From positions 267,063 to 331,062 of the forward strand of contig JAWKSQ010000001.1 in assembly GCA_041389045.1 (NCBI GenBank): a DNA stretch of 64,000 bases, written 5' to 3'. Source of the stretch: Minisyncoccota bacterium. GTDB taxonomy: Bacteria; Patescibacteriota; Minisyncoccia; Phycocordibacterales; UBA918. Below are positions 645 through 36,901 of the stretch, piece after piece; the first letter of the stretch is position 1; every line of letters starts with the position of its first letter. The notes beneath the pieces are model-generated. The model was not told where the DNA came from. It saw nothing but the letters and a program-made list of their open reading frames with translations, and ran no database searches. Made by a program: the position numbers and the translations under genes.

Positions 645-661
645 TCTTTTGTCTTATCCTT
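645..661 (+). promoter_or_regulatory. leader strand of the pre-16S processing helix
   Basis: TCTTTTGTCTTATCCTT is the exact reverse complement of 2387-2403 in the trailer (17/17 bp). Confidence 0.65.
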
Positions 662-791
662 AGGTAAAAAAATAGTTTGTTTGAGCGCGGGAAGTAGTAC
701 AGTACCGCAATGCTCGCAAACGCAAGGTTCAATAAAGGCGAACTTGTTGATGGTAAAACATCGACAAGTCTCGTCCCACGAGACTTGTCTT

Positions 792-2248
792 AAATTAGAG
801 TTTGATCCTAGCTCAGGATGAATGCTGGCGGCGTGGATGAGGCATGCAAGTCGAATGGGTTTAGGCCCATGGCAGACGAGGTAGGAACACGTAGGTACGT
901 ACCCCAAAGTCAGGGATAACCCGTCGAAAGACGGGATAATACTTGATAGTCTCTTCGGAGTAAAGATTTATCGCTTTGGGAACGGCCTGCGGGCTATCAG
1001 CTTGTTGGTAAGGTAACGGCTTACCAAGGCTACGACGGCTAGGGGAGGTGAGAGCCTGACCCCCACCGATGGAACTGCGACACGGTCCATACTCCTACGG
1101 GAGGCTGCAGTCGAGAATCTTCCGCAATGGGCGAAAGCCTGACGGAGCGACGCCGCGTGGTGGATGAAGTCCCTCGGGACGTAAACACCTTTTATGAGGG
1201 AGGAAATTTTGACGTTACCTCATGAATAAGGGGCTCCCAACTCTGTGCCAGCAGGAGCGGTAATACAGAGGCCCCAAGCATTATCCGGATTTACTGGGCG
1301 TAAAGGGTGCGTAGGCGGTTATATTAGTCAGGTGTTAAATCCTGGGGCTCAACCCCAGACTCGCATTTGAAACGGTATAACTAGAAGGAGTCAGAGGCAA
1401 GCAGAACTCATGGTGTAGGGGTGAAATCCGTTGATATCATGGGGAATACCAAATGCGAAGGCAGCTTGCTGGGACTTTCTTGACGCTGAGGCACGAAAGC
1501 GTGGGTAGCGAAGCGGATTAGATACCCGCGTAGTCCACGCCCTAAACGCTGTCTGTTGGCTATGGGGAGTATCGACCCTCTCTGTGGCGAAGCTAACGCG
1601 TTAAACAGACCGCCTGGGTAGTACGATCGCAAGATTAAAACTCAAAGGAATAGACGGGGGCTCGCACAAGCGGTGGATCATGTGGCTTAATTCGTCGATA
1701 AGCGAAAAACCTTACCAAGGCTAGAAACCATACTGCACGCTCTGGGAAACCAGAGAAGCCTTCGAGGGTGTATGGCAGGTGATGCATGGCCGTCGTCAGT
1801 TCGTGGCTTGAGCTGTTCCCTTAAGTGGGGAAACGAACGCAACCCTCGTTGCCTGTTATAAGTGTCAGGCGAGACTGCTCCCTCACGGGAGAGGAAGGTG
1901 AGGATGACGCCAGGTCAGCATGTCCCTTGATGCCTTGGGCTGCACACGTGATACAATGGGTGGTACAACGGGACGCAATGTGGTAACACGGAGCAAATCC
2001 TAATAAAACCATCCTCAGTTCGGATTGAGGGCTGCAACTCGCCCTCATGAAGCCGGAATCGCTAGTAATCGCGGATCAGCATCGCCGCGGTGAATACGTT
2101 CCCGAGCCTTGTACTCACCGCCCGTCAAGTCAGGGGAGTCGGGAGTACCCGAAGTCCCACCTAGCGTGGGCCGACGGTAAGCTCGATAACAAGGACTAAG
2201 TCGTAACAAGGCACGGCTAGCGGAAGCTGGTCGTGGATTAATTCCAAT
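792..2248 (+). rRNA. 16S ribosomal RNA (about 1.46 kb, no large insertion; ends approximate)
   Basis: Universal blocks present: AGAGTTTGATCCTAGCTCAG (797), ACTCCTACGGGAGGCTGCAG (1091), GTGCCAGCAGGAGCGGTAATAC (1245), ATTAGATACCCGCGTAGTCC (1517), AAACTCAAAGGAATAGACGGGGG (1638), TGTACTCACCGCCCGTCA (2110), AAGTCGTAACAAGG (2198), helix 45 with GGAA loop (2212-2235). Confidence 0.95.
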
Positions 2249-2386
2249 TGGATACGTCGGATTATTGGGGTAACCCTTTAACTCACGGCTAATTGGTCGA
2301 TGTTTTATGCCTCAATTGAGCATAAAACGAGAGATGATACTCAATTCTCTGAAATGGTATCAGACACTAGGGAAAGACCAGACCAA

Positions 2387-2403
2387 AAGGATAAGACAAA
2401 AGA
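2387..2403 (+). promoter_or_regulatory. trailer strand of the pre-16S processing helix
   Basis: AAGGATAAGACAAAAGA, exact complement of 645-661. Confidence 0.65.
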
Positions 2404-2517: not shown

Positions 2518-2913
2518 TTAGCAAGGTCCAGTTGATCCTGGTGGGCAGTTACTTGGCAGTTTGTTAGCGCGTTCGTAGTAGTCTGACACCGGAGCGGTTC
2601 GGCCGTCTAGGCCAGTAGTCTTTACTAGCATGTTGACTAGTCCCCAAAAAATGACCAGGAAAACAAAAGCGGTAATGCTATAGATAGCTAGTGACTTAGC
2701 TTTTTTTCGTCCGTCTTCGTTACTACCTTCAATAATAAAAAATCGTACCGCGTTTATGACAAAGACTAAGAAAGCCATCCCGAAGAGGAAAGGGATAATC
2801 ACCGTGTTAAAGAAGACGGGGAGGTTGGTCAGCATCGTTTGTATGGTTTGAGCCGAAACGAGGACGGGAAAGACTAGTAATGAGGCTGTCAGAGTCAGTA
2901 GTGATTTTTTCAT
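2518..2913 (-). CDS. secreted small membrane protein, TrbC/VirB2-like (T4SS-pilin-like) topology
   Basis: 131 aa; signal peptide MKKSLLTLTASLLVFPVLVSAQ, two hydrophobic helices flanking a charged loop (EGSNEDGRKKAK), Cys-containing tail; TATACT -10 box 9 nt upstream of ATG. Confidence 0.45.
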   Translation of the reverse strand: MKKSLLTLTASLLVFPVLVSAQTIQTMLTNLPVFFNTVIIPFLFGMAFLVFVINAVRFFIIEGSNEDGRKKAKSLAIYSITAFVFLVIFWGLVNMLVKTTGLDGRTAPVSDYYERANKLPSNCPPGSTGPC

Positions 2914-2975
2914 AATGTTTACAGTATAGCGTACCTTAAGTCTATTTTGGATACAAAAATGGCCCGATTGTGTCT

Positions 2976-3004
2976 TTGACTATATGAATAATATATTATA
3001 TAAT
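2976..3004 (+). promoter_or_regulatory. candidate promoter for 3064 CDS
   Basis: TTGACT - 17 nt - TATAAT. Confidence 0.4.
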
Positions 3005-3063
3005 ATTAATGGGAAAGTATCGTTAACCAGGCGCTTACTTTTTAAGGCGCCTAATTTGAGGAG

Positions 3064-3360
3064 ATGAAGATGAAAAAGGACTTATGGGCGGTGACCACTG
3101 TGATTGTTCTGACCTACGTGAAGGCTGCGGGGATGGCAATTTCCTTTACCGCTATGGCTATTTTTGCTTATCTGATCGTCCAACATGGATACGTAGTATC
3201 TGATTGGGAGATGTTGTCGCGTCACGTGGTCGGCTTGGTGGCTTCATCTGTATTACTCTGGATTTTCTTCACTCTAAGTCCTACTCAGCGCTGTTTTGAC
3301 TGGGGATGGGAAAGGGTGAGGGAACAGGAGAATACCTCAACAGCCACTTTGTGGCGGTAG
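3064..3360 (+). CDS. small integral membrane protein, unknown function (start probably ATG 3070)
   Basis: 98-aa ORF with 3 hydrophobic segments; GAGGAG 6 nt before ATG 3070; followed by strong hairpin. Confidence 0.5.
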   Translation: MKMKKDLWAVTTVIVLTYVKAAGMAISFTAMAIFAYLIVQHGYVVSDWEMLSRHVVGLVASSVLLWIFFTLSPTQRCFDWGWERVREQENTSTATLWR

Positions 3361-3367
3361 TGAAGAA

Positions 3368-3396
3368 GGGCCCGGCGCGCAAAGCGCGCCGGGCCC
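3368..3396. terminator. GC-only hairpin after 3064 CDS (putative terminator, no T-run)
   Basis: GGGCCCGGCGCGC-AAA-GCGCGCCGGGCCC, 13-bp perfect stem. Confidence 0.45.
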
Positions 3397-3453
3397 CAGT
3401 CTATTTACACAATATAATAAAAACACTGAAAAATAAGTCCAAAATGGCATACA

Positions 3454-3482
3454 TTGACGAAAATGTCAAAGTATGCTATAAT
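3454..3482 (+). promoter_or_regulatory. candidate promoter of the G+C-rich islet
   Basis: TTGACG - 17 nt - TATAAT, TGC immediately upstream of the -10. Confidence 0.4.
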
Positions 3483-3522
3483 AAAATTTGGATTAACAAC
3501 AGCGCTAATAAGCGCCTAGTAC

Positions 3523-3624
3523 ATGAAAAATATACCCCGTTGGGCTGAGTGGTTGGTAAATGCCACCATTCTGATCCTGTTGTCTTCAGCGCCGTGGCTC
3601 GGCGCTATCCTCAATCATCTTTGA
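3523..3624 (+). CDS. possible 33-aa hydrophobic peptide (below ORF-track cutoff)
   Basis: MKNIPRWAEWLVNATILILLSSAPWLGAILNHL; its stop lies inside the GAAGGAG preceding the next ORF. Confidence 0.2.
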   Translation: MKNIPRWAEWLVNATILILLSSAPWLGAILNHL

Positions 3625-3634
3625 AGGAGATCAT

Positions 3635-3877
3635 GTGATTGATTTTTCGACATTGGGTCGTTGGGAGCGATTCGCTGTCATGCGTGCGCTCGACCTGCTC
3701 TTGATTTTCGCCGCCTGGACAGCGGTGGGTGGTCTCATTGGTATCGCTGTCTTTGGACAGCTGGCCAACTGGGGCGAGTTCCTTTTAGGGTCGTTCACGC
3801 TCGGGCTGGTGCTCGAGATGCGGCCCAAACGGGATCCGGTCCACCGCCTGTGGCGGCGGATCAAGGGATGGCTCTAG
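3635..3877 (+). CDS. small membrane protein, unknown function, G+C-rich, GTG start
   Basis: 80-aa ORF with two TM segments; GAAGGAG 8 nt upstream of GTG; overlapping ORFs in other frames are attributed to the high G+C. Confidence 0.4.
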   Translation: MIDFSTLGRWERFAVMRALDLLLIFAAWTAVGGLIGIAVFGQLANWGEFLLGSFTLGLVLEMRPKRDPVHRLWRRIKGWL

Positions 3878-3895
3878 GCTTGTAGCCTAGAGCAG

Positions 3896-3943
3896 GCCGG
3901 AGGTGGTGAGGGTTCGTTTGGACCACTCCGCCTCCGGCTTTTT
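3896..3943 (+). terminator. intrinsic terminator after the G+C-rich islet
   Basis: GCCGGAGG...CCTCCGGC imperfect stem followed by TTTTT. Confidence 0.5.
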
Positions 3944-4010
3944 ACATTTTCAATTTTTTACTTAGTTGCTAGAAAGGCCTGTCTCGAGAGGTGGGCCTTT
4001 CTAGCAATCT

Positions 4011-4036
4011 TTTGCGTAATTTGTCCGCGCTCTAGG
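4011..4036. repeat. displaced copy of the tRNA-Ile 3' end plus 13 nt of 3' flank
   Basis: TTTGCGTAATTTGTCCGCGCTCTAGG, 26/26 identical to 4341-4366. Confidence 0.9.
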
Positions 4037-4340
4037 TGAAAAATGCTGGGAGTATTTTGCAAGACTTACTCCGATAGTTTAAGAACGAAGTGACATAAAC
4101 TAGCCAATGAGTGGCCAGCTTCTGTAAGAAGTCGAACCTATCTCCTTACAGGAGCAGTACACCTTTTGTCTATTCTTTTCGTCTAACTCAAGACTAGATC
4201 AAAAGGTTCTAAAACAGTTTCCCAAACTGTTTTAGCCCTCCGAGTATCAGGAGTCTGACCAATTTTTAATGACTATAGGGAATATAAAAATGGAAGTGGC
4301 CCTTGTGGCCCTCTAGCCAACCCTTTAGTAAATGTTTTGG

Positions 4341-4366
4341 TTTGCGTAATTTGTCCGCGCTCTAGG
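4341..4366. repeat. second copy of the 26-nt direct repeat (overlaps the functional tRNA 3' end)
   Basis: identical to 4011-4036. Confidence 0.9.
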
Positions 4367-4427
4367 ATTCGAACCTAGGACCCTCCGAGTATCAGTCGAA
4401 TGCTCTAGCCAACTGAGCTAAGCGCGG
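4354..4427 (-). tRNA. tRNA-Ile (anticodon GAU), CCA not encoded
   Basis: Hand fold of the reverse complement: acceptor CCGCGCT/AGCGCGG, D-arm GCTC-AGTTGGCTA-GAGC, anticodon arm TTCGA-CTGATAC-TCGGA, variable GGGTC, T-arm CTAGG-TTCGAAT-CCTAG, discriminator A. Confidence 0.9.
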
Positions 4428-4973: not shown

Positions 4974-5062
4974 AAATAAAGAGTCGCTTTTCCACTGTCG
5001 TCAATACTTTTAAAATACCGTCTCATAGTGGTATTTAGGTCAAAATTACGTATGATAGTGAC

Positions 5063-6430
5063 ATGTTAGGTCAAGAATTATTTAAGGGGAAGAAAATCAC
5101 GGTCATGCGCATCGGCCTTCTAGGTCGTGGTATTGGGGACACGGCTTATATCGCTGAAGCAGGCGCAGAGGTGCTCGTAGTTGATAGTGCCTCACAAGCG
5201 GTGATGCAACCAGCGGTAGATGCTTTAGCAGAGTATCCCAACATTACTTTTAAGTTTGGTCCTTACGACTTCGCTGACTTTAAGGATGCTGATATGGTAA
5301 TAGTCGGAGCCGGGGCTCCGCTAGATGAACCGGTTTTGGTAGAGGCAAAAAAAGCCGGGGTAAGTTTAAAGCAAAGTGCCGCTCTTTTTGCAGAGATTTC
5401 GGGTGTGCCGATTATTGGTGTGACTGGAACGCGTGGTAAGTCAACGGTGACACTGATGATTCACCATGTTCTGTCTATGGTGACTGAAGGAGCGCCAGTG
5501 CTTTTGGGGGGGAATATTCGTGGAGTATCTAATTTGCAATTACTAAAAGAAGTGAAAGAAGATTCACTTTGTGTGATGGAGCTCGACTCTTGGCAGTTGC
5601 AAGGATTTGGTTGGGCGGAGATAAGTCCACAAGTAGCTGTCTTCACTAGCTTCATGCCTGATCATATGAATTATTACCATGACGACATGGATTTGTATTT
5701 TAAGGATAAAGCGAATATTTATTTGTATCAGGAAGATAGTGGGGTGCTCATCACTACCCCTGACGTATTTACCTGGATACAAAAATTGTCTGGGACTTTA
5801 GGACAAGAACTTATTTTGGCTGACGCTTCAGCTATCCCGGAGGATTGCTTGCTCGCAATGCCGGGGGAACATAATCGTCTCAACGCCGCTTTGGCCTACG
5901 AAGCTCTAAAAGCCACCGGACTGACTGATGAGGAAATTTTTGATGGTCTAGCTAGTTTCCCGGGAGTGCCAGGTAGACTCGAATATTTAGGTAGTCATAA
6001 TGGAATTAAAATTTATAACGACAACAACGCCACCACTCCGACCGCCACAGCTGTCGGTATAAAAGCTGTGGCAGAAAATAAGAATGTGATTCTGATTATG
6101 GGTGGAGCCGATAAGGGTTTGGATATAGGTCCGCTTATTGAGGCTTTGGATGACAATGTTAAAAGCGTGATTATATTGCCTGGTACCGGTAGCGATAACT
6201 TGAGGCAAGAGCTAGAGACAACAGAAAAATATAGTACGGTTAACCGTACTATATTTCAGCCCGTCTCTTCACTTAAAGAGGCGGTGGAGGCCGGGTTGGC
6301 CAAAGGCCAACCCGGCGACGTCCTTCTATTTTCGCCGGCCTTCGCGTCGTTTGGAATGTATAAAAATGAGTACGAACGAAATGACGAGTTTGTGGAAATA
6401 ATTAAGTCGCTTGAAAATGAAACAAAATAA
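5063..6430 (+). CDS. murD: UDP-N-acetylmuramoylalanine--D-glutamate ligase
   Basis: 455 aa; Mur ligase P-loop GVTGTRGKST, NDNNATTP, C-terminal SPAFASFGMYKNEYERNDEF typical of MurD; TATGAT 6 nt upstream of ATG. Confidence 0.85.
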   Translation: MLGQELFKGKKITVMRIGLLGRGIGDTAYIAEAGAEVLVVDSASQAVMQPAVDALAEYPNITFKFGPYDFADFKDADMVIVGAGAPLDEPVLVEAKKAGVSLKQSAALFAEISGVPIIGVTGTRGKSTVTLMIHHVLSMVTEGAPVLLGGNIRGVSNLQLLKEVKEDSLCVMELDSWQLQGFGWAEISPQVAVFTSFMPDHMNYYHDDMDLYFKDKANIYLYQEDSGVLITTPDVFTWIQKLSGTLGQELILADASAIPEDCLLAMPGEHNRLNAALAYEALKATGLTDEEIFDGLASFPGVPGRLEYLGSHNGIKIYNDNNATTPTATAVGIKAVAENKNVILIMGGADKGLDIGPLIEALDDNVKSVIILPGTGSDNLRQELETTEKYSTVNRTIFQPVSSLKEAVEAGLAKGQPGDVLLFSPAFASFGMYKNEYERNDEFVEIIKSLENETK

Positions 6431-13362: not shown

Positions 13363-13382
13363 TTTGCTATACTAAATACAAC

Positions 13383-15377
13383 ATGGCATTTGATCCGGAA
13401 AAAATTACTTTCTTCGCTAAGACTGACGCTCGGGGACAGCAGATACCATTTGGTATTAAAGCTAAAGACAGACAGCGTCACATGTACGTGGTCGGGAAAA
13501 CGGGTATGGGTAAGTCGACCTTGCTTGAAAACATGGCGGCGCAGGATATTCAAAATGGCGAAGGTATGGCCTTCATTGATCCGCACGGCTCGGCGGCCGA
13601 AACTCTTCTAGACTATGTTCCAGAGCATCGCCTAAACGACGTGGTTTATTTTGCACCGTTTGACTTGGCTAACCCGATTTCTTTTAACGTGATGGAAGAT
13701 GTCGGTGCAGATAAACGACACTTGGTAGTGTCGGGACTAATGTCTACTTTCAAGAAAATTTGGGTCGATGCTTGGAGTGCGCGTATGGAGTACATTCTCA
13801 CTAACGCACTGTTGGCGCTCATTGAGTATCCCGACACTACTTTACTTTCAGTCAATAGACTCTTTTCAGACAAAGTCTATCGCAAGCAAGTAGTTGACTA
13901 CATTAAAGATCCAGCTGTGAAGGCCTTTTGGGTAGAAGAGTTCGCCAACTACACCGACCGTTTTGCGGCTGAAGCCTTACCGGCGATTCAAAACAAAATC
14001 GGTCAGTTTACCGGTAATCCACTGATTCGAAATATTATCGGCCAGCCTCATTCTAGTTTTGATATTCGAAAAATTATGGATGAGAAGAAAATTCTCATCA
14101 TGAACTTATCGAAAGGTTTGGTTGGGGAAACAAATGCCAATTTACTTGGTTCGATGCTGACAACTCGTATTTACTTGGCAGCGATGAGTCGGGCAGACTT
14201 ACCGGTGGAGCAGATGAAGACTATGCCAAACTTTTATTTCTACGTGGATGAGTTCCAGTCTTTTGCCAACGCTACTTTCGCTAATATTCTATCTGAAGCC
14301 AGAAAGTACCACCTCAATCTAATTATCGCTCATCAGTATATTGAACAAATGGAGGAAGAGGTACGCGATGCAGTGTTTGGTAACGTTGGTACAACTGTGA
14401 CGTTTCGGGTCGGTCCCTTTGATGCTGAAGTCTTGGAAACAGTCTTCACACCGCGCTTCTTGGCGGCCGATTTAGTAAATCTTGGCTTTGCACAAATTTA
14501 TCTAACCTTAATGATAGATGGTATTGGGTCACAACCATTTTCGGCGGTTACCTTGCCTCCAGTGGAAAGGCCCCACGTCTCTTGTAAAGACATGGTCATC
14601 GCTGCGAGCAGAAGAAACTATACCAAGCCACGGGAAATAGTAGAAAAACTGGTGACAGACTTGCATACCCCTGTAGTGGAGGTAAAGCCTAATCATGTCC
14701 AAAAACCTAAACCGAAAGATGCACCTCCAGCTTCTATTAATCAGACCCAAGCCAATAATTCACCAAAAAAAGATTTTCGACCAGAACGAGAAAATAAAAG
14801 TAATACTCCACATCAACAAAGATCAAACGAGACTAAAGATGCGACCCCTAGACCCCATCAGACTTCAAGTCAGCCAACAAAGACTCAGCCAACTACACAA
14901 AATTCACACCAAAAGTCAGCCAGACCGACAGATAGTGATCGAGACAAGCCGGCCAAATCTCCACTCGAGGACTTACGCTCGGTTTTAGCTAAAATTAGTA
15001 ATAAAGATACTCCTACTTCGCCAAAAACCACTGAGTCTAAACCGGAAGTAAAATCAGCTCCAGAGACCAAAAAACCTGACCATCGGGAAGGCCTAGCTTC
15101 AGTACTCAAGAAGATGGATATCGTTAAAGACTCTCCAGTGAAGGAGGGTGTGAATCAAAATCATCAACAGCCAGTTAATGAAGCAACTAAAAAAGTTGAT
15201 ACCGGACCAGTTACTGCCGATAAAGATGAGCTAGCTCGTTTGGTGGCAGAAACAGAAGCGGCTTTTTCAGCTCTAGATTCAAGTAATGTAGGTACGAAAG
15301 ACGGTCCGTTAGCAGTCAAAAAAATCGAAAAAATGTTTAAGCAGTCCGGTAACGAGCGTTCACCCTTCGCCTCATAA
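13383..15377 (+). CDS. VirD4/TraD-like (T4SS coupling-protein-type) P-loop ATPase with about 230-aa disordered tail
   Basis: 664 aa; Walker A VGKTGMGKST, Walker B-like FYFYVDEFQSF, AHQYIEQ; tail rich in P/K/T/Q/S; TGCTATACT extended -10 9 nt before ATG. Confidence 0.6.
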   Translation: MAFDPEKITFFAKTDARGQQIPFGIKAKDRQRHMYVVGKTGMGKSTLLENMAAQDIQNGEGMAFIDPHGSAAETLLDYVPEHRLNDVVYFAPFDLANPISFNVMEDVGADKRHLVVSGLMSTFKKIWVDAWSARMEYILTNALLALIEYPDTTLLSVNRLFSDKVYRKQVVDYIKDPAVKAFWVEEFANYTDRFAAEALPAIQNKIGQFTGNPLIRNIIGQPHSSFDIRKIMDEKKILIMNLSKGLVGETNANLLGSMLTTRIYLAAMSRADLPVEQMKTMPNFYFYVDEFQSFANATFANILSEARKYHLNLIIAHQYIEQMEEEVRDAVFGNVGTTVTFRVGPFDAEVLETVFTPRFLAADLVNLGFAQIYLTLMIDGIGSQPFSAVTLPPVERPHVSCKDMVIAASRRNYTKPREIVEKLVTDLHTPVVEVKPNHVQKPKPKDAPPASINQTQANNSPKKDFRPERENKSNTPHQQRSNETKDATPRPHQTSSQPTKTQPTTQNSHQKSARPTDSDRDKPAKSPLEDLRSVLAKISNKDTPTSPKTTESKPEVKSAPETKKPDHREGLASVLKKMDIVKDSPVKEGVNQNHQQPVNEATKKVDTGPVTADKDELARLVAETEAAFSALDSSNVGTKDGPLAVKKIEKMFKQSGNERSPFAS

Positions 15378-21951: not shown

Positions 21952-22818
21952 TTATTTTGGGAGTTGTAGCCAGGATTCTGGGATGAGATTTTTGTCATAG
22001 GGCGATAAATTGAACCAAGGGGTAGGTGCTATCACCACTTTATTTGGATTTGGATTGAGCCAGCCACTCCACCAACTAAAGCTACTGTTAGCGATGATAT
22101 TGTGTTGGCACATACTCATTAAGATTAAGTCTTCGGCGTCAGTCATACCGGTACCTTTCACAAATACTGCCTTGTTACCAAGAGGTAGATTTTCTTTTAC
22201 CCAAGGTAAATCATCAGAAAAGACGAAGTAAGTTGGCTCAGGTAGGACTTTTTCTATCTCAGCCATGGCGTTTTTGTAAAAATCTAACGAACAGGGTCCA
22301 AATTCTTTTTCCACCCGGGGATTCTTGATGTAATCTCCACGCCTGACATGCAAAGCCACGGCTGGTGAATTTTTAATTTGCTCTGCAAAGATAGCTCCAG
22401 CTTCACTGAAGGGCTTTGACAGGGTAAATTCCTTGAGCAGAATTTCTTTAATGTCGGTAAAGTATAGTGGTGACTGCCAAAATCCATCGAGAAAAATGTC
22501 GCCGGTTTTTTCTAAAATATCTTTTTCATACACCGTGTGAGTTCTCCGTAAAATATGTAAATTCGACCAACGCAGTCCTTTAGAGATAATCCCGAATGGG
22601 TATTTTAGGGCTCTGACTTCTTCTGGCTCGGCGATATTTTTAATAATGTTAAATTGTTCAAGAGAGAAAGGTCGATATATATCACCTAGTTCATTGGCTC
22701 TTCGCAAGCCGTCGGTATCTAGCTTGAGGAGGTCATTATTTTTTTGAGCCAACTTTCGACCGAGGGCGTATTGGAACATTTGATTACCTAGACCTCCTTT
22801 AAGATTAACTATTATCAT
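21952..22818 (-). CDS. GT11 alpha-1,2-fucosyltransferase
   Basis: MIIVNLKGGLGNQMFQYALGRKLA, HVRRGDY, SFSWWSGWL. Confidence 0.8.
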   Translation of the reverse strand: MIIVNLKGGLGNQMFQYALGRKLAQKNNDLLKLDTDGLRRANELGDIYRPFSLEQFNIIKNIAEPEEVRALKYPFGIISKGLRWSNLHILRRTHTVYEKDILEKTGDIFLDGFWQSPLYFTDIKEILLKEFTLSKPFSEAGAIFAEQIKNSPAVALHVRRGDYIKNPRVEKEFGPCSLDFYKNAMAEIEKVLPEPTYFVFSDDLPWVKENLPLGNKAVFVKGTGMTDAEDLILMSMCQHNIIANSSFSWWSGWLNPNPNKVVIAPTPWFNLSPYDKNLIPESWLQLPK

Positions 22819-23729
22819 AAATATGGCTGATTATCTGTGCTTTCTTCAGGAATAAAAAGAAGGTTATCGTATTGGTAACTATGTTTCAATTGGTGAGGTT
22901 TAACTGTACCATCAACTGCTATCTCATAAGGCAGGTAATTATTCGCCTTAAGTAAGGAGAATGCTTGGTTGCGATTATCTTCCCAGGCGGCTCCGTTGGC
23001 AACTTCAATAATTATTAGAGGGCGCTTTTTGTTCGGATTATATTTTAATAATTGCTCACTACCTTGAAGGACCTCGTATTCAAAACCTTCAGAGTCGATT
23101 TTTATAATTGACGGAGAAATGTTTTTGGTTGCACAATAAGTGTCTAGGGTAATGGCTTCAACTGTTATCTTCTTACCTTTTTTTGACAACGCATCAGCCC
23201 CTGCCATATGACCACTATTATAAGCCCCATAACCCGGTCCGTAGTCAGTAAAACTGATAGTTTTTTTAACTTCAGCCACCGCACGATTTTCTAAAGTTAT
23301 ATTACTAAAATTAGCAGTGTTATGTTTTAACAGTTTAAATGTCCAGGGAGTTGGTTCAAAGCAGTAAATATGTCCAGTCTCTCCGGTTAAGCGCGCCAGT
23401 AAAACAGCATAACTACCAATATGTGATCCAATATCAAGGATAGTTTTGCCTTCAGTAACGTAGCGTATGAAGAAACTCGTTAAGTTAGCTTCACCGTAGC
23501 CATAGTAATAAAAAGTATTGCATTCTGGCAAATAGCCCTTGATACTATCTCCAGTTAGAAGAAGGGAGGTTTTGGGGAACGGTAGTATTCTCGCGATGGC
23601 AGCCAGAAAATAATATTTTAAAGTACGAAAAGGCTCGTGTTTTAATCGCAGGACACGACTTAACGACCGTACTTTTTCGCGGGCGACAATGGTGTCGATA
23701 TATTTTTTCCTAGTGCTATCTGGCATCAT
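22815..23729 (-). CDS. FkbM-family methyltransferase
   Basis: ILDIGSHIGSYAVLLA, FEPTPWTFKLLKHN, IKIDSEGFEYEVLQG; ATGA overlap with downstream gene. Confidence 0.7.
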   Translation of the reverse strand: MMPDSTRKKYIDTIVAREKVRSLSRVLRLKHEPFRTLKYYFLAAIARILPFPKTSLLLTGDSIKGYLPECNTFYYYGYGEANLTSFFIRYVTEGKTILDIGSHIGSYAVLLARLTGETGHIYCFEPTPWTFKLLKHNTANFSNITLENRAVAEVKKTISFTDYGPGYGAYNSGHMAGADALSKKGKKITVEAITLDTYCATKNISPSIIKIDSEGFEYEVLQGSEQLLKYNPNKKRPLIIIEVANGAAWEDNRNQAFSLLKANNYLPYEIAVDGTVKPHQLKHSYQYDNLLFIPEESTDNQPYL

Positions 23730-24921
23730 TATTTTGAATTATGGTTTGGTACAAATCGATATACCTGGTTGTCATAAGTGATAGGTTATAACTGGTACGG
23801 ATTTTTACCGCCGAGGCTTTTGCCAGGTGCTCAATCTCGGCTGGGGTGAGTGACATGATATAGTCTAGGCCAATCTGTAAATCATGAGGGTCTTTATATT
23901 TCGCTATGTACCCGTTCTCTTTATGCACGAGAACTTCCTTTACGCCACCCACATCAAATGAAACAATTGGCAGCCCGCAACTCATGGCTTCTAGTATAAC
24001 AAGTGGGAAGTTTTCCGCGACTGACGTAAATAGTAAGGCGTCGGCGGCACTAAAGTAAAGGGCGGTTTCCTCGGGGGTACTCTTTGGTCTAAACAGGCAG
24101 TTTCCAGCTTGATAACTTAACGAGTCTAGATTTCCTACATTGAGGTAGAGACGATCTTTTTTGTCGATATCATTTTTAATTAACTCTTCAGCGTATGTCC
24201 AGCCTTTCCAAGGATTATCTTTTCCTCCGACCGCCAGAAATAGTATGATTTTTTTGTCTGGTGGGAGGTTTAAGGTTTCGCGAGCCAGAGCTTTAGGAGT
24301 TTTAGTAAATTTGTTGATGTCGATTCCGTTTGGTATCAGATAAGTTGGTTGTTTTCCTAATATCGTCTTTTTAACCCGCTCAGATAACCAGTGAGAGGGA
24401 GTAACGATATGTAGCTTTGATTGACGGTAGATACTGTTTTTGATTTCAGCTAGATGTTTTGTATAGGGCCAGAGGATTTTTGGTTGAATCTCTTTGCTCG
24501 GGCAGGTGTATAAACCATACTTCATATCTTCACCTTGCAATGTACAGGCGCAATGAGGCGTAATTGCCCATTCATCATGTAAAGTCCAGACAACTGGCTT
24601 GAGCTTACTCATTTTTTCTAGAGTGCGAAGATTAAAAAAACGACCATGAAGATTGTGACAATGTACTAAATCTGCCTTTTTAAACTGTTCTGTTTCTATA
24701 ATCCAATCGGTGTTCACAAATGATTCTGTGTTTAAAATATAGTCCAACACTTTTCTCCAGCGTGTCTTAGGAATAACGGTTACTGCCGGATCTTGACTGC
24801 GTTTGTCAGCCACAAAAAATGATACCGAATGCCCGCTTTTTTCAAGCGCTTTTTTTATTTCCCAAGATATTACTGCGGCTCCACCAAGGATATCTGTGGT
24901 ACCTATAAATAAGACATTCAT
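23716..24921 (-). CDS. GT4 (GT-B) glycosyltransferase
   Basis: 401 aa; GGAAVISWEI, C-terminal E..FPLVILEAMSCGLPIVSFDVGG. Confidence 0.75.
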   Translation of the reverse strand: MNVLFIGTTDILGGAAVISWEIKKALEKSGHSVSFFVADKRSQDPAVTVIPKTRWRKVLDYILNTESFVNTDWIIETEQFKKADLVHCHNLHGRFFNLRTLEKMSKLKPVVWTLHDEWAITPHCACTLQGEDMKYGLYTCPSKEIQPKILWPYTKHLAEIKNSIYRQSKLHIVTPSHWLSERVKKTILGKQPTYLIPNGIDINKFTKTPKALARETLNLPPDKKIILFLAVGGKDNPWKGWTYAEELIKNDIDKKDRLYLNVGNLDSLSYQAGNCLFRPKSTPEETALYFSAADALLFTSVAENFPLVILEAMSCGLPIVSFDVGGVKEVLVHKENGYIAKYKDPHDLQIGLDYIMSLTPAEIEHLAKASAVKIRTSYNLSLMTTRYIDLYQTIIQNNDAR

Positions 24922-25831
24922 AAATTTTTTTTAATTATAAAGCTTAAACGGGCGAATAATTTTTCAAAAAAAGTTGGTCTAATAGTTTGGTAGAAATTTT
25001 GAATCGCTTCTTTAACTTCATTTTTTTCATTTAAATTAGATATGGAAATAGAGGGCTTTTTATGACAAATTTTTGTCTCAAAACTCTGGTTTTTATTGGC
25101 ATTAGTTCCACTAGCATCATGGCCAATATTTTGGATTAATGAGCAGTACGGGGTAACCGCTAAGCCGCGATGTAGCACAATAGTAGCGTACCATTTAATG
25201 GCCCAGGTTTTTATATCGCCTCGCGCATTGGCACGGAGAGTACTGGAAAAACGAAATGTCCCGTCAATGTCTAAATAGTCTATAAGTTCTTCTGTTTCCA
25301 GTTTTTTGAGTAGTAAATTTGCATCATTCATAAAATAGTCCCACCGATCTTTCCAAGTCGCCCAACCCCAAGATAGTGCTTGTCGATATACGTAACATTC
25401 TTCAGGTGAAGGCTTAAACTCGGCCGGTAAACAAAAACCATTGATGTGCATGATTTCGGGAACGTCTTTGTAATGATTAAGAGCCTCGTACATAAACTGT
25501 AAAAAATAGGGTGATGTTACCAAATCATCCTCAAGCACTATAACTGAGCCATATTCTTTAGTTAGCCTAGTGACGCCAGACGTGATTGATTCAGCTAGAC
25601 CTTTGTTTTTGCTATGTTCAATTATTTCTACAATGGGTAGAGAGTTATTCGTATGGATAATTTCTCTTACTTTTTTACCCCGAGCTCTGCTTCGTCGTCT
25701 TTAGCGGCATCAGAGAAAATGTAGACAGGAAAGTTGGCTATACCAAAGTTGTTTGCTAAAGCCTGGATGGTTTTTTCGGTGTGGTCAGGGCGATTATAAA
25801 CAAAGAGTGCTACGGGAGGATAATTTTTCAT
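24918..25831 (-). pseudogene. GT-A-fold glycosyltransferase (paralogue of 31045..31995), one frameshift in an A-run near 25675
   Basis: MKNYPPVALFVYNRPDHTEKTIQAL...AELGVKK then VREIIHTNN...VIVLEDDLVTSPYF continues into ORF 24918..25538. Confidence 0.65.
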
Positions 25832-27383
25832 TTTGTGGGTCTAAAAAATAGGAAATTCACACCATCTTCACTAAACTCGATAAAGCCTTGTTCTTGTAGC
25901 TTTCTTCTTACTCGATGAGTATCTTCTGGTGTGAATTCAGACACTGTACCATGGTGAAATTCAACGATAAGTTGAGAGATTTTACCAAGTGTGGTTGGTG
26001 ATACGTTGTTTAGTACGTCGTATTCACTCCCTTCGATATCAATCTTTAATAAATCGATCTTAGGTACTTTTAATAACTCAATAATATCGTCAATAGTTAC
26101 AGATTCTACTTCGTAGGATTGTACATCGGTAGTCTTACTGTTCACGTGGGTGTTGAAGATTGAACCACTTTCGCTGTGTGCGTTCTCAAAAAAGTGTAGT
26201 TTTTCATGTTTACCCCCAGGGCGTATTGGTAGTATGAGAAGTTTGGAACAGTGTCAGCAATTTCGGCCAGATGATGACTGTGTTTTTTGGTTGGGTCGAT
26301 ACCGATACTCTTTACACCAAACTTGTCTATTAAAGCTAAAGAAAAGTCTGCCGTATAGCCAGTTCCGACATCCACCACGATACTGTCTTTGGTAAGTGTG
26401 TCATAAATCCAATAACATGGTGCAACGGCTGTTAAGGCGTGTTCTTTACGCACGTGGCTAAGTTTAAGTTTCCAGGAGGTATTTTCATACTTGGCTTTCA
26501 GTAGACCGATATTGTCTTTTAATTTCCACCAAAAGTAAGGAAGAGTAATTAATTTTAGAGCCAGCTTAGTCACCGAATAAGAGCGAATATTAAAACGAGG
26601 AATGGTAAATTTAGAAGAGGCGCCAGTAGTAAACTTTTGATCGTTAAGATAGGCGAAGTGAAACCCAAACTTCTGAACTGCCGCGATTGAAGCGGAGTTT
26701 ATGTCATAGATACCGCCAAAGGGGTAGGCGAAATAGTTTATAGTTTTTCCGGTAATGCTTTCGAGGATAGTCTTCCCAGTTTTAATATCATAGTCTTGTT
26801 GTGCGGGAGTTTGTGACGAAAGTCGTGGGTGGGTATGGGTGTGAGCACCAATGGTAATTAAAGGGTGATTGCTGAGCGATTTGAGTTGGTCCTCACTAAC
26901 AAAACAAGCTCTGTCTTGCTCAAGATATTGCTTATCCCAAGGGTGGTGAGCTTTTTCACCAAGTTGCGAGGTGGTGACGAAAATCGTAGCGGGTAAGTTG
27001 TGTTTTTCTAAGATAGGCAAAGCCTGACTTAAGTTGTCGACATATCCATCATCAAAGGTAATTGCCAGCTCTCGACCACTGATCAGGCCTTCAGTCAGGC
27101 GGGTATTTAGTTCTGGTAGGGATACAACTTCGTAAAACTTCTGATAGAAGTTTAGGTGTTCCTCAAAAGTTTCTCGGTCAACATTTAAAAATAGTGGATC
27201 AGCAGAGACATTACCGACTCGGTGATAGAGAACGATAACAGCGGTTTTTTTGGTGAGACGAGTTAAAAAATTTACTAAGGTAACTTTTAGCGTATAGATT
27301 AAAAAAAATAAACGGTGAGCGACTGAGTAAAGTTCAATCTTTTTTAAAACCGGTCTAATGTATGTCAGTAGGAAGTTTCGCAT
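25828..27383 (-). pseudogene. polysaccharide deacetylase (NodB) fused to an FkbM methyltransferase, one frameshift in a T-run near 26165
   Basis: ELAITFDDGYVDN, HTHTHP; VVDVGTGYTADFS; after the shift ...IDLLKIDIEGSEYDVL. Confidence 0.65.
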
Positions 27384-28096
27384 TATTTTTTAGCTAAAAC
27401 GGTAATGATCGTCGGGAAATTAGGGTCGTCTTTAGTGAAAACTCCTTTGCTAGTGTCTTCCTGTGCCAATCCAGCAAAAAAGTAAATCCCTGTTCGAGCA
27501 TTACCTTTTGATTCTATCTTTAAATTTTTAGCGTCAAAGACTTTACCAAACAGATATCTAGCAGAGGCAGTGGTAAATCGCCAGAAGTCACCGTCAGTAC
27601 CTGATACACAATCAATGCGACTGATGGCTGGTAGAGTGACTAGCATTGAACCTCCAGGTTTAAGTACACGCTGGCATTCCCTTAGGGCAGCGTCCACATC
27701 GTCAATGAATTGGAAAACCTGTGTCAATACAATGGTGTCATATTGATTATCAGGTACCGTAGACATTTTCCTGAGGTCACAGATAATTGTCGCTGCAGTG
27801 TTTGTATGATCAATATCTAAGATATCACCTTTGGTTACTCGCGCACCACCGTATTTTTTTGTATAGTCATTATTTAACAGCTCAAGGCAATGACCGCGAA
27901 TTAGTTCTTGGTGATTTTCTAAGAATTGTTCAATATAAAAGCGATCAATTGGTTTACCTCTATCTAGACCATACCAGTTACTTAGGGGGGTAGTTTTCCG
28001 GCTAAGAAAATAAATTACCGGAGACTTAACTAGCGTGCGATAAAAATATTTCGCAAGCTTGTGGAGAGGTGGGTATTTTTTAATCAGTGATTTCAT
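27383..28096 (-). CDS. class I SAM-dependent methyltransferase
   Basis: 237 aa; YDTIVLTQVFQFIDD, VLKPGGSMLVTLP. Confidence 0.65.
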   Translation of the reverse strand: MKSLIKKYPPLHKLAKYFYRTLVKSPVIYFLSRKTTPLSNWYGLDRGKPIDRFYIEQFLENHQELIRGHCLELLNNDYTKKYGGARVTKGDILDIDHTNTAATIICDLRKMSTVPDNQYDTIVLTQVFQFIDDVDAALRECQRVLKPGGSMLVTLPAISRIDCVSGTDGDFWRFTTASARYLFGKVFDAKNLKIESKGNARTGIYFFAGLAQEDTSKGVFTKDDPNFPTIITVLAKK

Positions 28097-29057
28097 GTTT
28101 TCTCTGGGCTATTAAGTAGTAGTTATCAGTTAGATAGCTGGTTTCAGCTTGGTAAATATTTTTATATTTTTCAGGTAGGGCTGTTACCTGTTCTGAAAAA
28201 GCAAACGATTCGTTTACCTTCTGATAGGCAATGAACAAGAAATTAGCTTTAAAGTACTCTAGATCTTTTATGAGATTTTGGGTTGCTTTATTTGACTCCG
28301 AGATTGCCCAGGTACTAAAAAAAACATCGGGTCGATAAACTTTAGCCATATTTGTTATGCTGGTCCGGCTAATTGGTACAATGTTTATTTTCCCCGGTAT
28401 TATTCCGGTCGTTTCATCATAAAGTACTGTACTGGCAGTCCCCAAAGTTGTCTTAAGATAAACCAGTTGAATAAATGAAAAGACTGGGATATCAATTATC
28501 GTATAAGTCATTTCTGGGTTAAGTGCTTTGGCTAAACGAGCCATATTTCCATAACCCCCACCTAGCTCACAGGCAGACTTAATTGTGCTTAATGACTGCT
28601 TAGACTCGTGTTCAAACTTTGCTAAGTGATATAGATGGTGAATGGTATTCCCCGAGCTTAAAAATTGCCAATCATTTAAAATGGGCGACCCAACCGAATG
28701 CTCTTTAAGTAAAAGCTTCGCTTTATCGTATCCGAAATGCTCTAGAATCAGCTTTTTCTGAATTCTCTTTGCGGCCGTGGGTAAATGGGCGAACATGGTG
28801 CTTTTAAGAATAGGATTTCTTAAAAATGAAAATGAGAACTTTTTTTCAAAGAATGACTCAATTTCGTCAGTATTTTTCTTCCAGCTCGGCATTAAAAACT
28901 CATTGTAATCAAAAGAAGATTTTCTGGCTTGATACAAACTGAGGGCTGCTCTATATTCTTCTAAAAATGATTTCTGGCTGTCTTGGGTAATGAAAAGGGA
29001 GATTAGGATAGAATAGCTGTGTCTAAAAATTTTTGCGGGAAGTGAAGTTACTGACAT
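28080..29057 (-). CDS. putative sugar O-methyltransferase-like protein
   Basis: 325 aa; CELGGGYGNMARL glycine-rich loop; operon context. Confidence 0.35.
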   Translation of the reverse strand: MSVTSLPAKIFRHSYSILISLFITQDSQKSFLEEYRAALSLYQARKSSFDYNEFLMPSWKKNTDEIESFFEKKFSFSFLRNPILKSTMFAHLPTAAKRIQKKLILEHFGYDKAKLLLKEHSVGSPILNDWQFLSSGNTIHHLYHLAKFEHESKQSLSTIKSACELGGGYGNMARLAKALNPEMTYTIIDIPVFSFIQLVYLKTTLGTASTVLYDETTGIIPGKINIVPISRTSITNMAKVYRPDVFFSTWAISESNKATQNLIKDLEYFKANFLFIAYQKVNESFAFSEQVTALPEKYKNIYQAETSYLTDNYYLIAQRKHEITD

Positions 29058-29060
29058 GTG

Positions 29061-30224
29061 TTATCTTTTAAAGTGACGATAAATCTTATAGAGAGGTTTT
29101 AAGTAAGTTGGTATTTTTAAATATCTAGGTCTATTTAATAGACCTAGATCTGTCAGGTATTTTACTACACTTTTATTGATTTTATCTTGTTGGTGACCGA
29201 TAAGACCCTCCGAGATGCGGAGATACATATAGAGTAAAAGAGGGGTTTGACTACCGTTTTTGGCTAAACAAGCACCAAGCAAAGTGAGCGCCTCTGAGTA
29301 TTTTTCTCGCTGCACTAAGCTGATCATTTCAATAAAACTTTGGGAGAGGTCGGAATAAGTCTCCGACTGGTTGGTCAACAGAGGTTTACCGCTTTGGGCA
29401 TAGTCGACAATCTTAGCACGAAGATTTGTGTTTTGACCGTGATAGTTTAAGTTAAAGATATCAAAAGAGATAATCATTTCGATTACGGCATTATGAAAAG
29501 ATGAGAGGATTGGTTCTAGGGCCAGATAGCTATTTATTGAAATGAGTCCTTGCTCATATTCGCGTTCGTAGTAGGACTTATGAGAGGTTTGGTTTTGGCG
29601 ATGGTAATAAAAAGTATTTGGACAAACAGAGGCTTTTAGACTCTTGGCAAGGAAGCCTAGACCAAATGTTTGGGTATCAAACCCGTGAGCAGTCGGGTAG
29701 CCACCAATGACAGAAAAGGCATTTTTTGTGTACATGAAGTTTACTTGCGTCAAAAAACCAGCCTCGGTGTTAAAGAGATCATTTAGTGAGACAATTTCCT
29801 CTTTGGGAGAATTGGGTACAATCTCTACATTTTTAAAATTAGTACTAAAAAATCTAGTTTCTGCAAAAAGGACGCCGTCTAGTTTTTTATCACACAAAAA
29901 AGTGTACATGCGAATAAGTGTCTGTGGGGGCAACACGTCGTCGCTATCTAGACAAAAGATTGTTGTAGCTAAAGTTTTTGATACAGCAGTGTTTCTAGCG
30001 GCCCCGCCACCTTGATTGGTCTGATGGGTGAGTAGGGTGATATTTGGATAGGTAGCTTTAATATTCTTAAGCAGAAGACCAGTACCGTCAGTTGAAGCAT
30101 CATCGACTAAGACAATTTCAAAATCATCACTGGCAAAGCCTTGTGTGTAGCAGGACTTAACTGCTTCAAGAAGGGTCTTTTCGCAATTGTAACAAGGTAT
30201 GATAATAGACAGTTTAGGCGCCAT
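29061..30224 (-). CDS. GT2 glycosyltransferase with helical C-terminal extension
   Basis: LSIIIPCYNCEKTLLEAVKSCYTQ...FEIVLVDDASTDGT, LDSDD. Confidence 0.75.
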   Translation of the reverse strand: MAPKLSIIIPCYNCEKTLLEAVKSCYTQGFASDDFEIVLVDDASTDGTGLLLKNIKATYPNITLLTHQTNQGGGAARNTAVSKTLATTIFCLDSDDVLPPQTLIRMYTFLCDKKLDGVLFAETRFFSTNFKNVEIVPNSPKEEIVSLNDLFNTEAGFLTQVNFMYTKNAFSVIGGYPTAHGFDTQTFGLGFLAKSLKASVCPNTFYYHRQNQTSHKSYYEREYEQGLISINSYLALEPILSSFHNAVIEMIISFDIFNLNYHGQNTNLRAKIVDYAQSGKPLLTNQSETYSDLSQSFIEMISLVQREKYSEALTLLGACLAKNGSQTPLLLYMYLRISEGLIGHQQDKINKSVVKYLTDLGLLNRPRYLKIPTYLKPLYKIYRHFKR

Positions 30225-31035
30225 AGATTTTTTTGAAAGCCAGGTTCTGTGTCGTGGTTTTGTATTTATTATCTCGTAGTTTAGATTCTGAGTGATAAGT
30301 TAGAATTTCTAATCCTTTCAAGAGTGGGGTGACAAGTAAGAACAATACTGGTTTAAACCATCGGTATAGGAAATTCTTCGAGAATCTCTTGTCTCTGCGG
30401 GAGAGACCATAAATTATCCTTTTTACTTTACTTCTAACTGGACCTTCTTCGTAGGTTAAAAACATCAGTTCATAGCCATTTTTTTTCATTAAGATAACTA
30501 TCTCCTCAGTTGTGTAGTGTTTTATGTGTCCGTAAGTTTTTTCTTTATAATATATAGCTGACTCAGGGGCGGGGCCGCATTTTAGGGGGTTGGGGGTCAT
30601 TATATATACAACACCGCCATAGGTTTGGAGGGCTGCTATCTTTTCTACAAACGCCTTGATGTCTGGTATGTGTTCATATATATCAGCTAGTAATATAAAA
30701 TCGGCCACTTCACGATTATTATAATTTTCAATTAAATCTTGGAAAATTTGTATGTTGGAGTGATTCTGCTTCAGCTTTTCGTGCTCTTCATGGTTGGTTA
30801 TTTCTACCAGAGTAGCTTTTTTAAAATATTGTGAAAATGAAGTTAGGTAATGACCAGAGCCACCACCAATATCAAGGCAATGATCCCATTTTTCAGAGAT
30901 GTTTAAAGCATGAAGCATATACTCTAAAGAAATCTTGACTGTGATATTGGGAATATCTTCAGAGTACTGAGCATCAATTAAGTTCCTCCGGTAGTTTTTA
31001 AAGATATTTATCTTTGGATACATTGGCTTTGACAT
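30214..31035 (-). CDS. class I SAM-dependent methyltransferase
   Basis: CLDIGGGSGHY, ADFILLADIYEHIPD. Confidence 0.6.
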   Translation of the reverse strand: MSKPMYPKINIFKNYRRNLIDAQYSEDIPNITVKISLEYMLHALNISEKWDHCLDIGGGSGHYLTSFSQYFKKATLVEITNHEEHEKLKQNHSNIQIFQDLIENYNNREVADFILLADIYEHIPDIKAFVEKIAALQTYGGVVYIMTPNPLKCGPAPESAIYYKEKTYGHIKHYTTEEIVILMKKNGYELMFLTYEEGPVRSKVKRIIYGLSRRDKRFSKNFLYRWFKPVLFLLVTPLLKGLEILTYHSESKLRDNKYKTTTQNLAFKKIYGA

Positions 31036-31044
31036 ACATTTTTG

Positions 31045-32822: not shown

Positions 32823-32824
32823 CG

Positions 32825-34909: not shown

Positions 34910-35118
34910 AAAGTGTATAGTATATAAATAGTACTATACAGATTAAATTTAAGTTACTAAAACCTAGACCAATGGGCATAAGGGCTTTTGTAATACTTCT
35001 AGTATACCCAATAAAATTTAAGTAAAAGTGTTTACTATATAGCCCACCATTAGGTTTGACTTTTAGGTAAATTATGTGATAATGCAGGTTGGGTTCATTC
35101 AACTATTAGGAGGTTGCT

Positions 35119-36764: not shown

Positions 36765-36901
36765 ATAAGAAATAGAACTGAATTAGTTTAATAATTGTAA
36801 CATCCTTAGTTGGTAAAAGAGAGTTTAAAGAAATTACTTGATTTTAAATGTAATCTATGTTATAATAATCAAGTGAGCTAATGTTCAACTAAGGAGTTCT
36901 T

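Follow-up and report, generated by a model that had tools for sequence, protein, structure and literature searches.

The pairing of the Shine-Dalgarno (SD) sequence with the anti-SD of 16S rRNA is the textbook mechanism of start-site selection in bacteria, and the anti-SD is almost universally conserved. The locus described here raises the question of how translation starts are chosen when this sequence is missing: in a stretch of 64,000 nucleotides from a Minisyncoccota bacterium (GenBank assembly GCA_041389045.1, contig JAWKSQ010000001.1, positions 267,063 to 331,062 of the forward strand; hereafter the window), the 16S rRNA gene ends in a tail that lacks the CCUCC core of the anti-SD. The reading proposed, to which a probability of about 0.8 can be assigned, is that this gene is the single, functional 16S rRNA of an ultra-small Candidatus Paceibacterota bacterium (Parcubacteria/Minisyncoccota, Candidate Phyla Radiation, CPR), that its anti-SD core was lost long ago and that initiation takes place without SD pairing. 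The elements of the gene and of its 3' end, as placed by covariance model (CM) alignment, are the following.

790 to 2248, plus strand: 16S rRNA gene, limits as set by the Rfam model RF00177 (1391.6 bits).
2212 to 2235, plus strand: helix 45, CACGGCUAGC-GGAA-GCUGGUCGUG (CM alignment).
2236 to 2242, plus strand: linker GAUUAAU, in place of GAUCACC (CM alignment and relatives).
2241 to 2245, plus strand: homologue of the anti-SD core, AUUCC for CCUCC (CM alignment).

The bacterial small-subunit (SSU) model RF00177 spans the gene at full length (model positions 1-1533 of 1533, threshold 50 bits). An earlier note, made from the letters of the window, had described a 16S tail without CCUCC and helix 45 at 2212-2235, and had proposed the alignment to this model as a check; the description is exact, and the alignment upholds the non-canonical tail. 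After helix 45 the sequence is GAUUAAUUCCAAU, where bacteria usually have GAUCACCUCCUUU. In a local CM re-alignment of the 3' end, every base of the tail GGAUUAAUUCCAAU reaches the highest posterior probability ('*') against the consensus GGAUCACCUCCUUU, so that the CCUCC core corresponds to AUUCC at 2241-2245; the universal GAUCA reads GAUUA, and a sequence scan finds no CCTCC anywhere in 2100-2600, in agreement with the earlier note on the region downstream of the gene. Helix 45 with its GGAA loop is present, and in relatives it is invariant or compensated (e.g., GGC/GUC to GGG/CUC), yet the GAUCACCUCC tail of the bacterial SSU, to which the protein Era binds, is replaced by GAUUAAUUCC; this odd tail is the finding itself and leaves the membership of the gene in the RF00177 family unaffected. 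The absence of CCTCCT at the 3' end is the mark of the anti-SD-less group of Parcubacteria, and the gene does not belong to the Bacteroidota type, in which CCUCC is kept yet unused.

The assignment to Parcubacteria/Paceibacteria is due to the identity of SecA and to the names of the 16S relatives. In a homology search, SecA (46163-48700) is 100% identical to a 'Candidatus Paceibacterota bacterium' protein at NCBI, and over 100 homologues, with names that include Nomurabacteria and Pacebacteria, share 75-88% identity with it; according to the taxonomy record, Paceibacterota is a present-day synonym of Minisyncoccota (CPR/Patescibacteria). The integrity of the rRNA can be followed in the 530-loop pseudoknot (E. 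coli 505-507/524-526), presumably universally conserved as GGC/GCC, in which UCC at 1235-1237 pairs here with GGA at 1254-1256; the change is compensated, and relatives have UGC/GCA and UAC/GUA. Due to the full-length 16S score and to this compensated pseudoknot, the gene is neither a pseudogene nor an artefact. The pseudoknot change also falls within the site of the 515F primer (GTGCCAGCAGGAGCGGTAA).

The tail was followed across relatives in two scans. In GTDB, one genome per species was scanned for any helix 45 followed by GATNADDTCC, with at least 119 contigs recovered; this set is biased, since the pattern itself demands a non-canonical tail, and for this reason a metagenome scan was run in which 120 contigs were picked by the helix 45 of this lineage only and the tail was left free. 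The GTDB matches listed are nearly all Patescibacteria (Kaiser-, Nomura-, Lloyd-, Yanofsky- and Yonathbacteria, Paceibacteria, Elulimicrobium), and the tails among them are GATTAATTCC (79), GATCAATTCC (23), GATCATATCC (10), GATTATTTCC (6), and GATTAAATCC (1); in most species among these matches AATTGGA comes after GATTAATTCC, and the sequence UCCAAUUGGA is palindromic. Among the metagenome contigs selected by helix 45 alone, both GATCACCTCC and CCUCC are found in 0/120, and the commonest tails are GATTAATTCC (27), GAATAATTCA (19), and GATTAATTCA (13). Both scans together give at least ~240 independent contigs of the lineage with non-canonical tails. The loss of the anti-SD is old and lineage-wide, and the tail is conserved rather than decayed, with a replacement sequence that appears to be under purifying selection. 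Some contigs with non-canonical tails carry labels from outside the CPR, namely those of a Gammaproteobacteria metagenome-assembled genome (MAG) with GATCATATCC followed by the 6-bp complement GGGATAT, of a Limisphaerales MAG with GATTATTTCC, and of an Azotimanducaceae MAG; in this third case the 16S has the character of Paceibacteria, and contamination of the bin is the probable cause.

It is extremely improbable that the odd tail is an artefact of assembly or binning, a chimeric end or a decaying pseudogene beside which a real 16S rRNA would carry a normal CCUCC. The window does derive from a MAG and only one rRNA copy is visible within its 64 kb, but the identical GATTAATTCC plus AATTGGA occurs in at least 107 independent contigs from many studies, the score of the gene extends over the full model with compensated tertiary pairs kept, leader and trailer form conserved processing helices, and the same loss is reported in the available text of a published survey (PMC9297842); this explanation can be considered effectively refuted already.

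The upstream regions of the genes are, as the earlier note had stated, essentially without SD, and three kinds of measure agree on this. Duplex energies were calculated for positions -22 to -2 of 52 non-overlapping open reading frames (ORFs) of at least 100 aa, in comparison to random positions and internal ATGs: the mean with the canonical tail is -2.29 kcal/mol at starts vs -3.42 at random positions and -4.10 at internal ATGs, and with the real tail, whose use the earlier note had proposed, -2.53 vs -3.31 and -3.64, respectively. The upstream regions hence pair more weakly than the background with both tails alike. SD-core 4-mers are located 4-12 nt upstream in only 2/26 and 1/19 starts, while AGGAG/GGAGG occurs 157 times on both strands of the window vs 175 expected from base composition, and stands before the start of an ORF with 40 aa or more in 13 cases vs 10-18 for permuted control motifs.

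An SD/anti-SD pair could also have co-evolved, with a new upstream motif that complements the new tail, for instance GGAAUUAAUC or a portion of this sequence (UUAAUC, GGAA); the strong conservation of the tail is what is expected of a functional pairing partner, and the 20 nt upstream of starts are enriched in TAATT, ATTAA, and TAATC. However, in the region from -20 to -4 of 265 ATG genes, taken from 107 contigs with the GATTAATTCC tail, the 5-mers of the reverse complement of the tail (GGAATTAATC) are not enriched (18.5% vs 18.5, 18.5, and 17.7% in the composition-matched reversed, sense, and complement controls) and neither are its 6-mers (6.0% vs 6.8, 1.9, and 5.7%); GGAAT and GAATT have no positional peak upstream of the starts of the same genes, and the real-tail duplexes of the window are weaker at starts than at random sites. 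Since the k-mers complementary to the tail do not exceed their controls, the AT-rich upstream k-mers reflect composition and promoters and not a co-evolved SD, which is a very improbable explanation. An alternative SD complementary to the new tail is ruled out by the duplex energies and the k-mer controls.

Many genes with an upstream gap are preceded by another signal, a -10-like hexamer (TATACT, TATAAT, TACAAT, TATGAT, TAGAAT) that ends 6-12 nt before the ATG; examples are the starts at 2913 (minus strand), 5063, 10420, 13383, 17924, 20143, 21888 (minus strand), 34909 (minus strand), 41857, 42443, 46163, and 51893. Five of these starts, together with one long operon, are described below.

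46150 to 46165, plus strand: leaderless-type promoter and start of secA, TATACT (46150-46155), 7 nt, ATG 46163.
13368 to 13385, plus strand: TATACT, 9 nt, ATG of a TrwB/VirD4-like ATPase gene (reading of the upstream region).
5051 to 5065, plus strand: TATGAT, 6 nt, ATG of a Mur ligase gene (reading of the upstream region).
41843 to 41859, plus strand: TATAAT, 8 nt, ATG (reading of the upstream region).
34907 to 34924, minus strand: TATACT (34919-34924), 9 nt, ATG 34909 of a polysaccharide-export gene (reading of the upstream region).
21952 to 33445, minus strand: long operon with internal starts overlapping or abutting the preceding stop, A-rich upstream and without SD (reading of starts and stops).

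In the window, 10/26 gap-preceded genes have a -10-like hexamer ending 5-13 nt upstream, with 1.9 expected (binomial p = 9e-6), and every -10-proximal start is an ATG. In the loci of relatives the hexamer is found in 114/462 cases vs 24-36 in equal-sized control windows farther upstream (Fisher p = 1e-14), with a rate that depends on the start codon (33% for ATG, 12% for GTG, and 3.5% for TTG); the histogram of its distances has a sharp peak at 6-9 nt, and the top enriched upstream 5-mers (TATAC, GGTAT, GCTAT, ATACT) correspond to (T)GnTATACT. In particular, five orthologous secA loci (proteins 77-83% identical) share the block GCGTATATACTA unchanged; it stands 7-10 nt ahead of the ATG and downstream of a terminator hairpin, in a space where a ribosome-binding site would not fit. 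Both an enrichment over background of a -10 element located ~6-12 nt upstream and a preference for AUG, as in leaderless genes, are therefore present.

Bacterial RNA polymerase initiates ~7 nt past the -10 hexamer, so that the mRNAs of these first genes should be leaderless or have leaders of at most 3 nt. Position -1 is T in 56-60% and G in 5-6% of ATG starts, in first and operon-internal genes alike, both in the window and in relatives, which fits a transcription start of the pyrimidine(-1)/A(+1) type. The T at -1 may also be a start-context preference additional to the promoter signal. In the operon 21952-33445, the gaps between genes are -17, -14, -11, -4, -4, -4, -1, -1, +2, +3, and +9. 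Operon-internal starts as a class have 40-46% A at positions -12 to -2; such genes would fit termination-reinitiation or entry on unstructured RNA. In the mechanism proposed, transcripts would start at, or within ~3 nt of, the AUG, 70S or 30S ribosomes together with initiator tRNA would bind the leaderless mRNAs directly, and translation of the downstream cistrons would depend on termination-reinitiation or on entry at unstructured A-rich RNA. The SD-independent initiation put forward in the earlier note is thus supported and refined to leaderless first cistrons with coupled or A-rich internal starts.

A mode of SD-independent initiation in the style of Bacteroidota, with leadered mRNAs and A-rich unstructured starts assisted by bS1 in place of leaderless transcripts, is unlikely: it would agree with the A content of the operon-internal starts, with the T at -1 and with the fact that a recognisable -10 box at leaderless distance is found in only 25-40% of first genes, but not with the sharpness of the hexamer peak at 6-9 nt, nor with a hexamer that is conserved at orthologous secA promoters and tied to ATG starts. 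The leaderless and the A-rich modes are compatible; for the internal cistrons, A-rich entry is the probable one.

The sequence that replaces the anti-SD is followed by several candidate structures of the pre-16S trailer.

2243 to 2252, plus strand: mini-hairpin UCC-AAUU-GGA, with the pairs U2243-A2252, C2244-G2251, and C2245-G2250 (association test, CM alignment).
2244 to 2296, plus strand: alternative trailer stem CCAAUUGG (2244-2251) with CUAAUUGG (2289-2296) (RNAfold, cofold, RNAalifold).
2302 to 2327, plus strand: covarying trailer hairpin GUUUUAUGC-CUCAAUUGAG-GCAUAAAAC (RNAalifold, both-sided changes in 9 pairs).
2388 to 2403, plus strand: trailer strand AGGAUAAGACAAAAGA, complementary to the leader at 645-660 (sequence reading).
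645 to 660, plus strand: leader strand UCUUUUGUCUUAUCCU, complementary to 2388-2403 (sequence reading).

In the metagenome set picked by helix 45 alone, tail positions 8-10 predict the bases 3-6 nt downstream: after UCC comes GGA in 24/26 unique tails, while after UCA comes UGA in 32/46 and GGA in 0/46 (Fisher p = 4e-17, not phylogeny-corrected), and other variants of the hairpin are UUCA/UGAA, CUCA/UGAG, CUCU/AGAG, and GUCA/UGAC. The MAFFT alignment of the tails is ungapped and unable to hold differing loop lengths, for which reason a test in fixed register is only weakly discriminating; these tests were replaced by the association test between complementary arms and by the alignment of 100 metagenome contigs to a CM in which a 6-nt linker joins helix 45 to a 4-bp hairpin. 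In this alignment, which is fitted to the model and so leans to structure, three of the four pairs have changes on both sides and 86% of the cells are paired; the covariation score is above those of all 500 shuffles and all slid registers. According to the mechanism proposed, the remnant UCC would be held in a pair with the GGA downstream, in a mini-hairpin that covaries across the lineage and that may serve pre-16S processing or give the mature rRNA a structured 3' end.

The trailer (2250-2405) has 70-95% identity in many relatives. A GGUCGAU box (2295-2301), present in most lineages, directly precedes the hairpin 2302-2327, and the leaders of relatives have a box, UUUCUUUUGUYYCGUU, similar to that of the window; the strands 2388-2403 and 645-660 are presumed to form the pre-16S processing stem. 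The alternative 8-bp stem encloses a variable GNRA-capped hairpin (GUAA tetraloop, about 2259-2284) and is specific to the subgroup of the window (86 unique sequences); according to RNAalifold all 8 pairs are kept in 41 subgroup members, with one-sided changes only. As judged by folding, it is a valid alternative fold for the window. As a general cause of the conserved GGA it was rejected, the AAUCGG, AAACGG, and UUCAAUUUGAA subgroups having no downstream partner and double compensations being absent within the subgroup of the window; since the other subgroups are without a partner for the long stem, the mini-hairpin is the general feature. The contig ends of relatives, taken as a proxy for the mature rRNA end, gave none near the tail.

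The chances are about even that the UCC/GGA hairpin and the helices downstream belong to pre-rRNA processing only and are removed at maturation, leaving a short unstructured mature tail with no role in translation. The hairpin coincides with the edge of the Rfam model, the trailer around it has further covarying helices and pairs with the leader, the bases of the hairpin form the 8-bp stem in the subgroup of the window and the hairpin is marginally stable when alone; on the other hand, a hairpin of 3-4 bp that covaries at a fixed 6 nt from helix 45 across subgroups with unrelated trailers suggests a function linked to the end of the 16S as such. A more tentative proposal, and on balance a doubtful one, is that in Paceibacteria a built-in helix replaces the anti-SD: UCC (UCA in the sister group) would pair in cis with GGA (UGA) 3-5 nt downstream and would be kept in the mature 30S, at the platform site of the SD/anti-SD duplex, as a permanent intramolecular mimic of the SD helix. 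If true, this mimic would be the sign of a ribosome specialised in leaderless translation and reinitiation, and would explain the conservation of helix 26 in Parcubacteria that have no SD helix; this helix, which contacts the SD helix, is described in the available text of PMC9297842 as highly conserved in Parcubacteria for a reason called unknown.

Several points weigh against the reading proposed here. On the side of the promoters, leaderless status is read from the promoter-to-ATG spacing alone, the gene starts are the first start codons of long ORFs, which adds noise, and coverage of the genome amounts to 64 kb only. A generic sigma-70 -35/-10 scan gives 39 sites vs 36.5 in shuffles and is not enriched, so that the promoters appear to be -10-dominated, as the leaderless interpretation requires. 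On the side of the tail, the covariation statistics ignore phylogeny, the mini-hairpin of the window has 3 bp only and is estimated to be of marginal stability, and ViennaRNA folds 2230-2262 differently, at -4.1 kcal/mol; moreover, the predicted 8-bp trailer stem would compete with the mini-hairpin for the same nucleotides in the subgroup of the window.

The earlier note had also considered the few SD-bearing ORFs (3064/3070, 3635, 35119, 36902) as possible recent imports. The four ORFs exist, and as a class they occur at chance frequency; since an SD-like motif together with a start is found at chance level, import is not needed statistically to account for them. For 35119 and 36902 nothing except a locally higher GC content is in favour of import. 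For 3064 and 3635, instead, an imported cassette is plausible, though unproven, due to the GC content, the absence of a match in relatives, the promoters and terminators and a repeat of the 3' end of tRNA-Ile. These two small hydrophobic ORFs (3064-3360 and 3635-3877), preceded by SD-like motifs, are contained in a segment (2950-4010) with 49.5% GC vs about 42%, and the surrounding region ~2810-4020 is matched by 0/239 loci of relatives; the genes on its flanks (pilin-like, tRNA-Ile, and Mur ligase) do occur beside the 16S of relatives. The segment has near-consensus sigma-70 promoters (2976-3004 and 3454-3482, 11/12 matches) and very GC-rich terminators (3368-3396 and 3965-4008), and its expression style, as far as these elements predict it, would be unlike that of the leaderless genes of the host. 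A perfect 26-nt direct repeat (4011-4036 and 4341-4366, copies 330 nt apart) duplicates the 3' end of tRNA-Ile, the second copy overlapping the 3' end of tRNA-Ile(GAT) (4353-4427, minus strand), and looks like an att-type scar of integration at a tRNA. The ORFs 3064 and 3635 have no Pfam match, and blastn of 2950-4340 against phage and plasmid collections gave no match that would indicate a foreign origin. Between the copies of the repeat, tRNA-like fragments such as CCCTCCGAGTATCAGGAG are present. A further hydrophobic ORF of 49 codons (36861-37052, ATG 36903) has TATAAT (36861-36866), a leader of ~30 nt and AAGGAG 6 nt before the ATG, and is located between two sugar-nucleotide dehydratase genes of the other strand.

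Downstream of the trailer, the surroundings of the 16S gene include the following element.

2445 to 2489, no strand assigned: long perfect hairpin with a 20-bp stem, downstream of the 16S trailer (sequence and ORF list).

The miRNA-like matches at this hairpin are spurious. It is followed by a T4SS_pilin (Pfam) gene at 2518-2913 on the minus strand, and the interval 2250-2520 contains neither tRNA genes nor 23S rRNA; due to this succession of the 16S and an opposite-strand gene, the rRNA genes are unlinked in this genome. Farther away, secA is followed by a small conserved phage-holin-4 (PF04020) gene in 5/5 relatives examined (48700-49100 in the window).

The core finding, the loss of the anti-SD in this lineage, is already known, since Tsurumaki et al. 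2022 (RNA 28:1041, PMC9297842) report the anti-SD motif as missing in about half of Parcubacteria, with CCTCCT detected in only 48% of their 16S genes. The earlier note had left open whether the loss was described for this lineage, and the available text of that survey answers that it is, for a subgroup of Parcubacteria; the lineage and the observation are the same as those of the 16S of the window. The same text states that the anti-SD-less group overlaps the group lacking uL1, that SD helices are presumably not formed in it and that bS21 is frequently absent in Parcubacteria; within the 64 kb of the window, no gene for a ribosomal protein was identified. In addition, an article of 2025 in Molecular Biology and Evolution (MBE; PMC12641178) states, in the text available, that Paceibacteria and three other CPR classes for the most part lack era and describes, in a separate passage, complementary trends of era and rbfA in ABY1 vs Paceibacteria. 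The available text of Tsurumaki et al. 2022 gives presence or absence of the motif only; the present analysis goes beyond it in the replacement sequence, its conservation and pairing, the upstream regions, and the leaderless promoters. The additions made here are a test for a co-evolved SD, with negative outcome, the promoter signature of leaderless genes, and the conserved covarying hairpin that replaces a single-stranded anti-SD; in the published literature searched, neither a conserved base-paired replacement tail nor promoters at leaderless distance were found described for CPR, and an article of 2025 in NAR on promoters, in which CPR is mentioned, has no bearing on the question.

A large and environmentally abundant bacterial class without anti-SD is a natural experiment in SD-free translation. 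Gene calling in CPR is affected, as start prediction with models of the ribosome-binding site will fail, and the finding bears on the heterologous expression of CPR genes and on the interpretation of reduced CPR ribosomes. The conserved, base-paired replacement tail and the promoters at leaderless distance are possibly worth a short follow-up.

Among known systems, Deinococcus, Mycobacterium and other Actinobacteria, and many archaea are rich in leaderless genes (e.g., Cortes et al. 2013), and those bacteria keep a canonical anti-SD and use SD for leadered genes. The genes described here resemble those of leaderless-rich prokaryotes in having a TANNNT -10 box ~6-10 nt before the AUG, no SD, and a strong preference for AUG, while they differ from those of the leaderless-rich bacteria in that an anti-SD is available there and for no gene here. 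Eukaryotic 18S rRNA ends in ...GGAUCAUUA-3' and shares with the 16S of the window helix 45, GAU(C/U)A, A/U-rich bases, and the absence of CCUCC, with GAUCAUUU and GAUCAUAU as variants in relatives; the rest of the molecule in the window is bacterial and no scanning machinery is present, so that the resemblance is convergent only. In Bacteroidota, SD-independent initiation reportedly takes place with CCUCC kept and sequestered by bS21, bS18, and bS6 (Baez et al. 2019; Jha et al. 2021). The genes without SD and the A-rich upstream regions are common to both systems, whereas CCUCC is kept there and gone here, and bS21 is often absent in Parcubacteria (PMC9297842, available text). Endosymbionts with tiny genomes and mitochondria have likewise lost CCUCC and ribosomal proteins in reduced genomes (Lim 2012, Amin 2018, Nikolaeva 2021, as cited in the available text of PMC9297842); there the loss occurs sporadically and in connection with extreme AT drift, whereas in the present case a diverse, free-standing clade of large size, with 42% GC, has it as a fixed trait.

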